Virus record (IMG/VR): IMGVR_UViG_2537562192_000013
Source of the DNA: a virus
Taxonomy: Duplodnaviria > Heunggongvirae > Uroviricota > Caudoviricetes
Reading direction: 5' to 3' (one strand)
Length of the DNA stretch: 46,243 nt
This document shows positions 3,001 through 6,000 of the stretch, in pieces; position 1 is the stretch's first letter; every line of letters begins with the position of its first letter. Position numbers: made by a program.

Positions 3001-6000
3001 GATCGCTTCCCATGAAAACTTGCCGTAGCATCCCCTGACTGTTATCAGAGTCACAGACACTAATGACGGATTCGACAGGGTATACATCTTAATGGCGTTG
3101 GGGTCTCCCACTGCAGACACCTGAGCATTCAGAGCAGCAACCGGAAAAGCGACAGGAAAACGGATAGAGTGCTGTGTCATAAGCTTACCATCATCCTCAC
3201 TTACCTCAATACTGCCCCATTGCCGCAAACGACCGGTTACTTCATCACGCTCCCAGCCATTTACTGTCAGGCTTGCTGTTGTGGGCTTGTTTTTTGTGCT
3301 GTAATCCACCCGCCAGTGAAAACGTTGTGTGTCTCCATAAACTGTACAGGTACAGACCGTGCCGTTCAGAAAACCATCGCCACCGTATTCGCCGATGGTG
3401 ACCCGGACTATGGCTGCGTTATACGTCCCCATCACCTCAATGGCGCAGCCTCCCAGATTGAGTTTTCCCGGTCCGACATCCGTGATGACCTTATTAAATT
3501 CCGCAAGCAGTGATGCCTTCATCATCCAGTAAGGCTGGTCAAATGCCCCTTTTTCTTTCAGCCAGGCGACAAACTCACTCGTGGTCCATTCACCGGCCCC
3601 CGTATGAATGTCCCGCCCGTATACTCTGGCTGCTCCCACGGTGTTCAGAAACTTCACCTTATCCGGGATATCGTCACCGTTTTTCGCTTTCTCCAGGCAT
3701 CCGTCCGCTTTGTCCATTGCCGCTTTCACCGCTTTCGGGGTGGCTGCCTTCGTTTCATCATCACTGTCCGTTGCGCTGCTTAACTGCACAATTCCCTTCT
3801 GTGCCGTCGTCGCATCCGGTCCGCCCGGCTCGCCTTTTTCGCCCTTCTCTCCCCGTTCACCTTTCACACCCTGAAGCCCCTGCGGCCCCCTCTCACCACG
3901 CTCACCCTTTGGCCCCCGCTCGCCGGTATCGCCTTTTGGCCCGGGAATACCCTGCGGCCCGGTGTCCCCCTTATCCCCCTTCGGTCCCCGCGCATTCTCT
4001 GCCCGTTTTTTTGCCTCCTCCGCACTGGCTGCGGAGGCTTCCGCACGTTTCAGGATTTCCGCTGCCACCGCTTCCAGCTCTGCAAGGGCTTTCGGGTAAT
4101 ACTGTGCGTCTTCCAGGTCCATCAGAAATTTATTCAGCGTTCCCGGTGCAGAATCCGCCTTCACCAGAATGTCACCCACATATGACGGCGCGTACCCTTC
4201 CGTGTTCAGCGTCACCCGGTACAACCCCGGCTCAACATCCATACTGTAACTGCCGGTTTCCCCCGGCTGACCATACGCCACCGTGGTGACAATCACCGTC
4301 TCCGTTGTGCGGCGCGCTTTCAGCTCTATCGTGCATCCCGGTACCGCTTTTCCCGTACCATCCTTCAGCACACCCGATATTCTGACTGTCATGGATTTCC
4401 CCCATAAAAAAACCGCAGTACCGGTTTCCCGGCCTGCGGTAAAATTTGTGGTTTGTTGGTGTTAAAACGGTGCCATCCGGCTGACCACCCTCAGCAACCG
4501 GTCGGCGGGGGATATTCTCCCCCCGCCACGGTTTCTTACTGCTTACACTGTAAGAACGCCGCAATCTCCGCGCCCGCTATCCGGAACCGGAACTCGCACA
4601 GTGAACTGTGGGTGATCCAGATAATGAGCACTACCGTGATACAAATCACGGTGGTTTTTAACGGTTTTTGCGACATAAACGCTTGCTCCTTTTACGGAGA
4701 GGCGCTAACCTTCTTCTTGCTGAAGGAAGAACGTCAGGCCTCGGGTTAAACATGAATGTTTGTCCGGGGCCTTCGTCTTTCCGGCCTTCAGGTGTTCCCT
4801 CCGGCCATCAGCCAAAGGCACCCGCGCATACTGTACGGTTTTTGTCTCCTTCCGGCAATCCCGGGGCGCGATGTTCAGCGGATACTGATCCCCGCGCTGT
4901 TTTTCTTCACCACTATCGCCTGAAGGTTACTGATACGTGAACTGCCAAAACTCCCGTTCTGACGTCGTGAACTTACGGTAAAACTCAGGGTGATATGACC
5001 ATGACCGGCTGGCATATCGATGATCCCGCTGAAAATTCCCGGCTCTGTCACTGACCTGCCTGAATAAATCCGGCGTCCGTTCTGATCAACATGCAGGAAG
5101 CACTCTGTCCAGATGTCATTACTGGTGCGGGATTCCTGTTTTGACCCGACATAGATTATCGGCGGGATTATAATCTGCCGGTCAAAGCTGTGATCGTCAT
5201 ACACCGTCAGCGTTCGTGTACCGTTCGCAAGGTAACTACCATCCACCGGAAAAGCCACCCCTGCACATTTCACAAGATCACCAATAATGTTCTCCGCTTT
5301 CAGCGTGCCATTTATCGTACAGTTCTCCGCTATCACGACATTATTGAGCGTGCCCGAGTTCGCACTGATATGTCCGCTGATGTCCGCATTGCGGGCCGTC
5401 AGCCTGCCCTCCGGCGTCAGGGAGAACGTCGGGGGATTGCCGGACGAGGTGATGCTCACTGCAAACAGTCGCTTCAGGAACACATCGTTCATGAACAGCT
5501 GATTCCCCTGCGCCACAAACAGCGGCGTGGTGTTGCCGTTCTCCGGGTTAATCATCGCGATACGGTCCGCCTGCAGCAGTATATTGCTCAGGGGCTGGCC
5601 ATCAGCATCCTCAATCCCCGCACCTATACCGGCAACATACGGAATGCCGTTTTTTGTTTTCTGCACCTTCAGCATGTACAGCGCAGCCAGGTCGTTATTT
5701 GTGTCTGTCTGCACCCGCTGTATCTGCTGTATGGTGGCACTCTGGTCTTCCAGAGTTTTACTGACCGTCTGCGTGATTTCATTGCGGGTTTCGGTGATGG
5801 TGGTCTTCATCTCCGCCATCTCATCGTCAAGCTGGCTGTTATCAATCAGCTCCCACATCCCCTGTGCCAGATGTGTCTTCCCGATTTCTCCTCTGAAAAA
5901 GTCCAGATACCCTTCCGCATCATTGCTCGCCCGGCCACTGGCTTCCACAAACGCAGATTTCCCCACCAGGTTGACGCTGCGCACATAAAACCAGAAATCC

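Follow-up and report, generated by a model that had tools for sequence, protein, structure and literature searches.

The hok/sok (parB) locus of plasmid R1 is the paradigm of the type I toxin-antitoxin family to which the locus described here is compared. In R1 the Sok antisense RNA is unstable, the hok mRNA is stable, and the duplex of the two is cut by RNase III (PMC9841398). Translation of mok up to the hok Shine-Dalgarno sequence is required for Hok synthesis (PMC9841398). The hokW-sokW locus of prophage Sp5 is an experimentally proven toxin-antitoxin pair, is RNase III- and Hfq-dependent, and makes the cell lyse and release phage faster once the SOS response is induced (Takada et al. 2021, PMC8621323). 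A survey of Hok proteins catalogued clusters 79 and 72 among others and found hok to be enriched in prophages (Escalera-Maurer et al., bioRxiv 10.1101/2025.08.07.668861). Overexpression showed 42 of 45 Hok representatives to be toxic, and the three non-toxic peptides are named as 19_179, 60_1482 and 69_1540. Mok, Sok and mRNA structure were explicitly left aside in that survey.

The window analyzed here is a stretch of 46,243 nucleotides of viral (Caudoviricetes) DNA, IMG/VR record IMGVR_UViG_2537562192_000013. Between the J and stf genes of this lambdoid prophage there is very probably an intact type I toxin-antitoxin module of the hok/sok kind, which forms a self-contained "moron". Features of the locus are in Table 1.

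Table 1. Features of the hok/sok-type locus and its neighbors (window positions; strand in third column)
Feature	Position	Strand	Basis and remarks
J	4875..8393	-	Upstream neighbor of hok
hok promoter	4830..4858	-	Predicted; -35 TTGCCG (4858-4853), 17-nt spacer, -10 TACAGT (4835-4830)
Full-length hok mRNA, about 416 nt	4406..4823	-	Predicted; +1 GGGUGCC to intrinsic terminator
5′ "tac" element, mRNA nt 1-58	4766..4823	-	Folds and covariation
Predicted Sok RNA, about 65 nt	~4718..4782	+	Complementary to hok mRNA nt 42-106; ends inferred
Sok-target hairpin, mRNA nt 59-80	4744..4765	-	Stem AAACA/UGUUU; helix 5, 92% of cells paired
31-codon leader ORF ("mok-like")	4658..4753	-	Judged fortuitous; ATG 4753-4751
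Leader hairpin 3	4699..4742	-	GAGGC (4742-4738) paired with GCCUC (4703-4699)
sok promoter	4683..4711	+	Predicted; -35 TTGCTC (4683-4688), 17-nt spacer, -10 TAACCT (4706-4711)
hok Shine-Dalgarno AAGGAG	4686..4691	-	9 nt before ATG at 4676
hok CDS, 46 aa, MSQKPLKTTVICITVVLIIWITHSSLCEFRFRIAGAEIAAFLQCKQ	4536..4676	-	Pfam PF01848; RefSeq WP_000078852.1
GC-rich 3′ stem-loop	4504..4527	-	Just after hok stop; 8 GC pairs
fbi (fold-back inhibition) box, UGGUCAGCCGGAUGGCACC	4469..4490	-	Complementary to mRNA nt 2-21
Intrinsic terminator of hok mRNA	4406..4439	-	CCGCAG...CUGCGG then U7; read from sequence and folded
Tail-fiber gene (stf)	2992..4392	-	Stf-type N-terminal domain; downstream neighbor of hok

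Gene setting

An earlier, sequence-only reading of this DNA had placed a 46-codon Hok/Gef-like toxin gene between J and stf, at the position where lambda carries lom. The placement is right. The window itself has no lom, but in Stx phages lom and a hok of the window lineage lie side by side, the latter directly after lom. The same reading had the locus bracketed by intrinsic terminators, and this holds for the downstream side only, where a minus-strand stem (4439-4413) is followed by T7. Nothing terminator-like is present in the 16 nt from the J stop codon (4875) to the hok -35 box (4858), i.e. there is no terminator between J and hok. The generic hairpin scan missed the hok terminator, which has a loop of more than 8 nt.

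The Hok peptide

The open reading frame, its peptide and the AAGGAG ribosome-binding site are all exactly as first described from the sequence. The assignment to the Hok/Gef family is confirmed by a profile search: the peptide matches Pfam HOK_GEF (PF01848) with 43.5 bits, above the gathering score of 22 (E = 2.4e-11), with residues 10-44 aligned to profile positions 8-42 of 42. It also matches PHROG 251 (E = 1.8e-21), a family that PHROG places among morons. All seven residues that are conserved in more than 80% of Hok peptides are present (M1, C12, T14, L26, C27, E28 and E37; in R1 numbering M1, C16, T18, L30, C31, E32 and E41). Their spacing (2, 12, 1, 1, 9) is that of R1 Hok, shifted by four residues, and C44 is the counterpart of the C/Y48 position. 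The single hydrophobic helix near the N-terminus that is typical of the family is present too. The NCBIfam Hok models score far below their cut-offs, i.e. HokA (NF007290) 38.2 against 89 bits and the Hok family model (NF007279) 37.2 against 73 bits. The peptide is not a HokA orthologue and represents a separate lineage inside the Pfam family.

The coding sequence is under purifying selection, with a dN/dS of about 0.25 across the lineage (373 pairs). The 46-codon length is kept in relatives from E. coli, Salmonella, Serratia and Yersinia; the start codon is gone in a small number of relatives (L036, L040).

The gene had been taken to be unannotated, which is incorrect. RefSeq genomes of E. coli that contain identical DNA carry a CDS named "Hok/Gef family protein" (WP_000078852.1) whose peptide is identical to that of the window, and only older phage GenBank records label the gene as hypothetical. 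The peptide is also identical at 45 of 46 positions to the assayed cluster representative 79_1563, and the variant found in Stx phages is 72_1589. Both were assayed and neither is among the three peptides named as non-toxic, thus both are toxic by exclusion. With a RefSeq annotation and a near-identical toxic copy this is an ordinary gene, apart from the apparent lack of the usual mok leader frame in its lineage. The Hok finding is correct but already known, and the gene call itself adds nothing. Sok RNA annotation for the window lineage is absent from the records inspected, and the RNA parts, all unannotated for this lineage (Sok, both promoters, tac and fbi), are mapped here with covariation support.

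Promoter and folding of the hok mRNA

Both promoters of the locus are sub-consensus and were located through homology and conservation. A generic promoter scan with a threshold of 9 of 12 consensus positions called none on either strand; the hok promoter matches 8 of 12. Its -10 box is 6 nt ahead of the +1 G at position 4823. The motif TAnAnT is found at -12..-7 from the invariant GGGTGCC in 57 of 58 relatives, and TTGCC[GC] is at -35 in 44 of 58.

The Rfam family RF01794 matches the leader marginally, with 62.9 bits (gathering score 59). The match starts exactly at 4823 and spans the leader from +1 to the AUG, with model positions 1-157 at 4823..4665. Scores of hokC, hokB and hokW are 110-118, while five other members of the window lineage fall below the gathering score; thus the lineage is divergent. 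The match of a family termed "sok" on the minus strand could be taken as a strand conflict. This was rejected, as RF01794 also matches the controls hokC, hokB and hokW on the hok-sense strand and therefore models the hok-sense leader.

The minimum free energy fold of the full-length RNA is -187 kcal/mol (z = -8.6), and the 5′ end is closed onto the 3′ region. Nucleotides 2-21 of tac pair with the fbi box, which is ~340 nt away. The duplex has a predicted energy of -36.1 kcal/mol compared with -19.1 ± 3.5 for shuffled 3′ segments, none of 1000 of which reach it, and cognate classes give -31.9 compared with -26.6 for non-cognate ones. In the predicted fold of a truncated RNA, nucleotides 1-58 switch to a local stem-loop. 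Both of these alternative pairings of the 5′ end covary. In the local stem of 12 pairs, 91% of cells are paired and compensatory changes occur at 3 pairs. The corresponding values for the tac/fbi helix (helix 1, 16 pairs) are 93% and 4, whereas slid registers of the helix reach about 40%.

Leader hairpin 3 is present in both the Rfam consensus structure and the truncated-RNA fold. In one relative (L042) GAGAC occurs together with GUCUC, a compensatory double change in this stem. The GAGGC strand (4742-4738) is the equivalent of the mok Shine-Dalgarno box of classical hok loci.

In the full-length fold the hok Shine-Dalgarno sequence is buried by the upstream CUCUCC (4702-4696). Its modelled unpaired probability is 0.00 in the full-length RNA, 0.19 in the truncated RNA and 0.00 when the Sok target is blocked. 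Among representatives truncation opens the site in the expected direction but only slightly (on average 0.02 to 0.10), and the model fails for about 7 of the 26. The GC-rich stem-loop after the hok stop codon has two covarying pairs, AU15/GC11 and GC22/AU3 (helix 16). By analogy with R1 (PMC9841398) this hairpin is expected to be the 3′ end, and the protecting hairpin, of a processed, truncated hok mRNA.

The Sok antisense RNA

A Sok-like RNA on the plus strand had been expected over the leader at roughly 4700..4900, and the analysis supports this with a predicted RNA inside that interval. The predicted antisense promoter is conserved, its architecture (-35, 17-18 nt, -10) being found in 62 of 62 distinct relatives. 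In phage 933W a TAACCT sequence lies 7 nt ahead of the annotated sokW 5′ end, and the sok promoter of the window is at a like position. In the predicted fold of Sok (-28.7 kcal/mol) the first 7 nt are single-stranded, a hairpin occupies 4736-4771 and the RNA ends in a U-rich stretch. This shape is common to five other clades, and the geometry agrees with that of annotated sokW, sokC and sokB.

The leader open reading frame and alternative interpretations

A conserved mok frame is absent from this lineage. The sequence-only reading had taken a short upstream reading frame that overlaps the hok start as reminiscent of mok-style coupling. This would make the locus a classical mok-coupled hok/sok system, in which the 31-codon frame is Mok, its translation opens the hok start, and Sok blocks mok initiation. 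The frame begins within the segment complementary to Sok and stops 19 nt beyond the hok ATG, which would allow coupling, and R1 has the mok requirement described above. The details of the frame argue against it. Its ATG lies in the loop of the Sok-target hairpin, has no Shine-Dalgarno sequence before it and is upstream of the conserved GAGGC box, whereas the mok ATG of the positive controls hokB, hokC and hokW is 8-9 nt downstream of that box. A start codon (ATG, GTG or TTG) 4-13 nt after GAGGC is not found in 61 of 62 relatives. In other clades ACG or CTG replaces the ATG, and an open frame is only sporadic: it is missing from relatives that are 96-99% identical to the window (the near-identical L001, L009 and L022 lack it) and from all other clades. 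In most of 58 units, the stretch from the Sok target to the hok ATG is closed by stop codons in every frame. Mok coupling through this frame is very unlikely. Two substitutes for it were rejected. Possible ACG or CTG mok starts after GAGGC are followed by a conserved TAG (in GGUUAG) or TAA that closes the frames in most relatives, and the window itself lacks the short leader frames from the ATG or GTG in GAUGUGG (nt 44-49), which stop within the target hairpin.

The missing mok could also be a sign of decay, i.e. the locus would be a silent relic from which Hok can no longer be expressed and which is kept by prophage hitch-hiking. Loss of the hok start codon in the two relatives given above fits such a reading, as does the fact that many chromosomal hok loci are inactivated; in K-12 IS186 adjoins hokC. 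The rest of the locus does not look decayed. The 46 codons are kept across four genera at the dN/dS given above, the sok promoter is intact in all 62 relatives, compensatory changes preserve both pairings of the 5′ end, and a peptide that differs by one residue is toxic (by exclusion). Neither antidote nor RNA switch would have been kept by a dead locus, and the relic interpretation is very unlikely. There is next to no likelihood that the frame is a chance ORF or encodes a small membrane protein of another kind, e.g. a lom-region moron of a different family. The frame is very short and hydrophobic, and such frames do arise by chance, but the Pfam match above the gathering score, the PHROG match and the seven signature residues in register led to rejection of a chance ORF. 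The flanking RNA fits the hok leader model as well, and the reading is already refuted.

Proposed mode of regulation

For the preferred interpretation, an intact hok/sok module, the following sequence of events is proposed. The weak promoter would give rise to the ~416-nt hok mRNA, which would be inert as long as the hok ribosome-binding site is buried and the 5′ end of the RNA (GGGUGCCUUUGGCUGA...) is clamped to its partner box, ~340 nt further downstream. The clamp would be lost as the 3′ end is slowly trimmed to the GC hairpin that follows the stop codon, the freed 5′ end would form its local stem, and the leader would refold. The ~65-nt Sok from the conserved opposite-strand promoter is expected to be short-lived. 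Its pairing with leader nucleotides 42-106 would leave the message untranslated and mark it for RNase III. When the supply of Sok ends, be it by prophage loss, induction or host transcription shut-off, the stable mRNA would yield the 46-aa Hok, which would enter the inner membrane, collapse the membrane potential and kill or lyse the cell. The transcript ends, 3′ processing, RNase III cleavage and Sok instability in this scheme are modelled on R1 and hokW-sokW. The biological trigger, and the way in which Sok would block translation without mok, we infer as well.

Since the mok frame is missing, the canonical mechanism cannot hold in full, as one of its links falls away. The window lineage may be regulated without mok, which is the one mildly new point here. 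A broader proposal is put forward tentatively and is somewhat less probable than not to be correct: the 46-aa "AAFLQCK" lineage as a whole (clusters 79 and 72, found in lambdoid and Stx prophages in the lom/J-stf region) may consist of mok-less hok/sok systems in which Sok acts directly via RNA structure. Our preferred guess is that the GAGGC box acts as an anti-anti-Shine-Dalgarno sequence that is masked by Sok. In the processed mRNA GAGGC would pair with GCCUC and partly free the hok Shine-Dalgarno sequence. Sok bound to nucleotides 42-106 would mask GAGGC, so that GCGCCUCUCC could bury the Shine-Dalgarno sequence again, in addition to RNase III cleavage. Convergent read-through of the late operon from J could silence sok during lytic growth, and Hok might then be a lysis-timing accessory like HokW.

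Should the lack of mok prove to be functionally real, a widespread natural branch of the paradigm type I family would do without the textbook mok-coupling step, and the action of Sok would have a simpler model. The value of these points, i.e. the unannotated RNA parts, the missing mok and the presence of two hok lineages in Stx phages, is modest.

Comparison with known systems

Like hok/sok of R1, the window locus encodes a small Hok toxin with identical signature residues. Its predicted mRNA, again about 400 nt long, folds back from 5′ tac to 3′ fbi, refolds in the truncated form and carries a putatively protective 3′ stem-loop. As in R1, where Sok is about 64 nt, the predicted cis-antisense Sok would consist of a single-stranded 5′ tail and a hairpin and be made from a promoter that lies within the leader. 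The R1 toxin is 52 aa, compared with 46 aa in the window, where the N-terminus is four residues shorter. The window has no conserved mok frame, yet it has kept the GAGG box, which is the mok Shine-Dalgarno sequence in R1. The locus lies among the tail genes of a prophage and not on a plasmid.

The K-12 loci hokB/mokB/sokB and hokC(gef)/mokC/sokC share with the window the 5′ GGGUGC start, the GAGGC box, the position of the sok promoter and the Rfam family. In hokB and hokC, unlike in the window lineage, mok starts with an ATG at -57 or -58 and its frame stays open past the hok Shine-Dalgarno sequence.

The hokW-sokW locus of the Stx2 prophage Sp5 and phage 933W is prophage-borne like the window locus. 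It has the same antisense -10 sequence, TAACCT, 7 nt before the Sok start, and its leader geometry is similar, the Sok 5′ end being 43-48 nt upstream of the hok ATG. HokW is 51 aa long (MKQQKAM...), groups with HokD and HokC, has an annotated mokW and is encoded elsewhere in the phage. In 933W and Sp5, hokW coexists with a member of the window lineage that lies just after lom. Identity of the window locus with hokW was rejected, as the two differ in protein, in leader and in where they lie in 933W and Sp5. These medically important phages thus have a second hok locus besides the studied hokW-sokW, which matters for the reading of hokW deletion phenotypes.

At the protein level there is no difference between the window and clusters 79/72; the regulatory anatomy mapped here is absent from that survey. 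The locus is also comparable to lambda lom and bor-type morons, each being an autonomous promoter-gene-terminator cassette in the same orientation between late tail genes. The cargo is different, an outer-membrane protein in the lom-type cassettes and a toxin-antitoxin module in the window.

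Identity of the hok gene

The 46-codon open reading frame encodes exactly the 46 aa peptide quoted in the sequence-only reading, and the AAGGAG site claimed for it is present. Its identification as a Hok-family member from raw sequence is correct. The Pfam HOK_GEF profile matches with 43.5 bits (gathering score 22, E = 2.4e-11) and PHROG 251 ("MokW-like host killing", moron category) with E = 1.8e-21. The residues M1, C16, T18, L30, C31, E32 and E41 are conserved in more than 80% of 1264 Hok peptides (Escalera-Maurer et al., 10.1101/2025.08.07.668861), and all seven are found in the window peptide with identical spacing (M1, C12, T14, L26, C27, E28 and E37). 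With the NCBIfam HokA and Hok-subfamily models the peptide scores far short of both cut-offs; it thus represents a separate lineage, and none of the named K-12 Hok proteins is its orthologue. In a database of 5.8 billion proteins, relatives that bear a name are all termed "Hok/Gef family protein" and their hosts are E. coli, Salmonella, Serratia and Yersinia. The dN/dS ratio over 29 distinct 46-codon alleles is ~0.25. In two close relatives, L036 (about 2973–3141) and L040 (about 2964–3132), the hok ATG is gone, and the gene may be inactivated.

The gene had been described as unannotated, which does not hold: RefSeq WP_000078852.1, the E. coli CDS between gpJ and the tail-fibre gene, is already named Hok/Gef family protein. 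Over the 482 bp of the region E. coli STEC2018-553 and N51 match at 100% identity, and 270 of 5426 complete E. coli genomes cover at least 80% of it. The open reading frame is also called in phage 1720a-02 (96% identical) and in 933W (L0129), there with the label hypothetical. A survey has catalogued 44,248 Hok homologues, enriched in prophages, and its Table S2 of tested representatives includes 79_1563, MSQKPLKTTVICITVVLIIWITHSSLCEFRFRIAGAEIAAFLQCKR, and the Stx-phage variant 72_1589 (Escalera-Maurer et al. preprint, 10.1101/2025.08.07.668861). The window peptide is identical to 79_1563 at 45 of 46 positions. Toxicity was found for 42 of the 45 peptides tested there; 79_1563 and 72_1589 are not among the three exceptions and are therefore read, by exclusion, as toxic. 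The window hok is a known, annotated family member, and the sole non-trivial remainder is the apparent absence of mok from its lineage.

Gene neighbourhood

The placement of hok between J and stf is borne out, and in identical RefSeq DNA the neighbours are annotated as gpJ and prophage tail fibre. The window tail fibre displays, after its N-terminal domain, a collagen-like Gly-X-Y segment (residues ~135–190), a phage fibre repeat and a gp53-like C-terminal domain; its STEC2018-553 counterpart is annotated as split or pseudogenised. Of the terminators said to bracket the locus, the downstream one is present, and inspection of the interval from the J stop to the hok promoter gave no terminator-like element. 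The contexts of 83 related loci are J-hok-Stf, as in the window (29), Lom-hok (33) and other (17); the hok module thus recurs as a moron in the tail-fibre region. STnc100, C4 antisense RNA, isrK and two tRNA genes also reach their Rfam gathering scores in the window, as is typical of prophages of the lambdoid and Stx type.

Features of the hok locus and further Rfam matches in the window
Feature	Position	Strand	Remarks
J protein	4875..8393		1172 aa; upstream of hok
Rfam RF01794 match	4823..4665	-	62.9 bits (gathering score 59)
31-codon ORF	4753..4658		covers hok start
GAGGC box	4742-4738		
hok SD, AAGGAG	4691-4686		nine bases 5′ of hok ATG
hok ORF	4536..4676	-	46 codons
AUG-region helix	4674-4666 with 4564-4556		alignment A2 columns 155-163 with 267-275
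GC hairpin	4504-4527	-	directly after hok stop codon
3′ box	4490-4469		
Terminator	4439-4406	-	CCGCAG...CUGCGG + seven U; downstream of hok
Tail-fibre gene	2992-4392	-	466 aa; downstream of hok; N-terminus is Stf-type "prophage tail fibre N-terminal" domain
sok promoter	-35 TTGCTC 4683-4688; -10 TAACCT 4706-4711	+	17 nt spacing; predicted
Predicted Sok RNA	~4718 to ~4782	+	7-nt free 5′ tail, strong hairpin 4736-4771, U-rich tail; -28.7 kcal/mol
STnc100	29791-29999	-	
C4 antisense RNA	38441-38528	-	
isrK	38553-38629	-	
tRNA gene	31417-31490	-	
tRNA gene	31507-31580	-	

Several related loci show other arrangements. Complete hok units of the window's lineage stand in tandem in L041 (IMGVR_UViG_2757320580_000004; three units, ATGs at 2008, 2502 and 3001) and in L043 (two units, ATGs at 3001 and 3497). 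These units are about 495 bp apart; none shares its 5′ box, 3′ box or sok promoter with another, and their peptides have diverged. In L008 (Salmonella enterica subsp. diarizonae) a window-lineage hok is followed after about 170 nt by the sRNA STnc540 (3309–3495, minus strand, 185.7 bits), which is encoded on the opposite strand. Two Firmicutes-labelled contigs, L004 (Planococcaceae MAG UBA3378, with a masked run of N in the leader) and L005 (Vagococcus sp. WN89Y), carry a hok almost identical to that of Salmonella L006; the labels probably reflect contamination or mis-binning and not transfer.

Predicted structure of the hok transcript

The RF01794 match spans the hok mRNA from its 5′ end up to the start codon of hok. 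In the controls hokC, hokB and hokW the model scores 110–118 bits on the hok strand (matches at L088 502–654, minus; L089 567–718, minus; L090 703–877, plus), opposite the annotated sokC, sokB and sokW. Although named "sok antitoxin", the family models the hok-sense leader, and its strand calls therefore denote the hok leader and not Sok. The match begins with an invariant GGGTGCC, 6 nt after a TAnAnT hexamer kept in 57 of 58 relatives, and TTGCC[GC] is at -35 relative to the GGGTGCC start. G4823 is taken as +1 of the hok mRNA.

The 419-nt RNA from 4823 to 4405 folds with -187 kcal/mol (z = -8.6). The fold-back for which folding of the leader had been proposed is found: in the full-length RNA nt 2–21 pair with the 3′ box. 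This duplex has -36.1 kcal/mol compared with -19.1 ± 3.5 for shuffled 3′ segments, none of 1000 being as strong, and between 5′/3′ classes cognate pairing is the stronger (-31.9 versus -26.6 for non-cognate). In a MAFFT alignment of 26 representatives, which was not fitted to any structure, the 16 pairs of the fold-back helix are formed in 93% of cells, and four are changed on both sides (e.g. GC17/CG9, GC17/AU9); slid registers, as control, are about 40% paired. When the 3′ box is removed, nt 1–58 form a local stem (91% paired, three compensatory pairs). Such a pair of covarying helices, of which the 5′ end can form only one at a time, is the signature of a tac/fbi switch of the type described for R1 hok (PMC9841398). 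The GC hairpin after the stop codon, whose R1 equivalent protects the truncated RNA, also covaries; in L073, a related locus, a ~41-nt duplication surrounds it (about 3150–3248).

The hok AUG and the six bases after it, AUGUCGCAA, form a long-range helix with UUGCGGCGU in codons ~38–41, which is 99.6% paired. It is almost invariant even at synonymous sites, which suggests that the part of the gene encoding the C-terminus is constrained at the RNA level.

The predicted antisense RNA

A Sok-like plus-strand RNA had been expected over the leader at roughly 4700..4900, and a candidate is found there, with a predicted promoter of the same architecture in 62 of 62 distinct relatives. The ends of the RNA are predicted by analogy; the annotated sokW of 933W begins 7 nt after an identical TAACCT. 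The predicted RNA has equal shape in five other clades and is complementary to hok mRNA nt 42–106. Sok is annotated in none of the database records inspected.

Apparent absence of mok and the proposed mechanism

In hokC, hokB and hokW the mok ATG is at -57 or -58, 8–9 nt past GAGGC, and its frame is open beyond the hok SD. The window has kept GAGGC, yet no start codon follows it. The upstream frame that had been likened to mok does exist; its ATG is 11 nt upstream of GAGGC, within the Sok-target hairpin loop and without an SD of its own. The mok-style coupling read from it is not sustained: ATG, GTG or TTG is absent 4–13 nt past GAGGC in 61 of 62 distinct relatives, and in most of 58 units stops close all frames on the way from the Sok target to the hok ATG. 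Since these include L001, L009 and L022, relatives 96–99% identical to the window, the 31-codon frame is sporadic and not conserved. A conserved mok thus appears to be missing from the lineage as a whole. A non-exhaustive literature search found no statement to this effect, because the Hok survey placed Mok explicitly outside its analysis (10.1101/2025.08.07.668861).

The locus probably works by the hok/sok mechanism, and the best guess is that the step replacing mok coupling would be structural. When the RNA is truncated, GAGGCC (nt 82–87) pairs with GCGCCUC (nt 119–125) in the fold, so that the hok SD retains just three pairs; the related locus L042 displays a compensatory GAGAC/GUCUC in this helix. 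GCGCCUCUCC is free to bury the SD in the full-length fold and also when the Sok target is blocked. In a partition-function model the SD is unpaired with a mean probability of 0.02 in the full-length RNA, 0.10 in the truncated RNA and 0.02 in the truncated RNA with Sok (0.00, 0.19 and 0.00 for the window), with the expected direction of opening in about 19 of 26 representatives. The modelled effect is small and so lends weak support to structural coupling. A mok-less hok/sok lineage, with Sok acting directly through RNA structure, is possible, if still somewhat doubtful.

By analogy, the locus could serve in prophage stabilisation, in abortion of superinfection or as a lysis aid after induction, as hokW-sokW does (Takada et al., PMC8621323). 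Since J and hok are not separated by a terminator, late transcription must traverse the locus convergently with sok, and this read-through could deplete Sok late in infection.

Relation to hokW and Stx phages

Immediately following lom, Stx phages have about 78% identity to the window across 82% of the region, and they encode a 46 aa Hok there (MSQKSLITVT...AAFLQCKQ). This homologue is not HokW, which has 51 aa and a different location (Takada et al., PMC8621323). In 933W and VT2-Sakai hokW is elsewhere in the phage, with annotated mokW and sokW, thus 933W and VT2-Sakai/Sp5 carry two hok loci (AF125520.1 45475–45869 and 58460–58786; AP000363.1 44516–44910 and about 57.8 kb). These are unrelated lineages, hokW-sokW and a member of the window's lineage ("L0129 hypothetical") after lom, and the latter is the one without a study in its native context. 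The second hok locus in 933W/Sp5 may buffer the phenotypes of hokW deletions.
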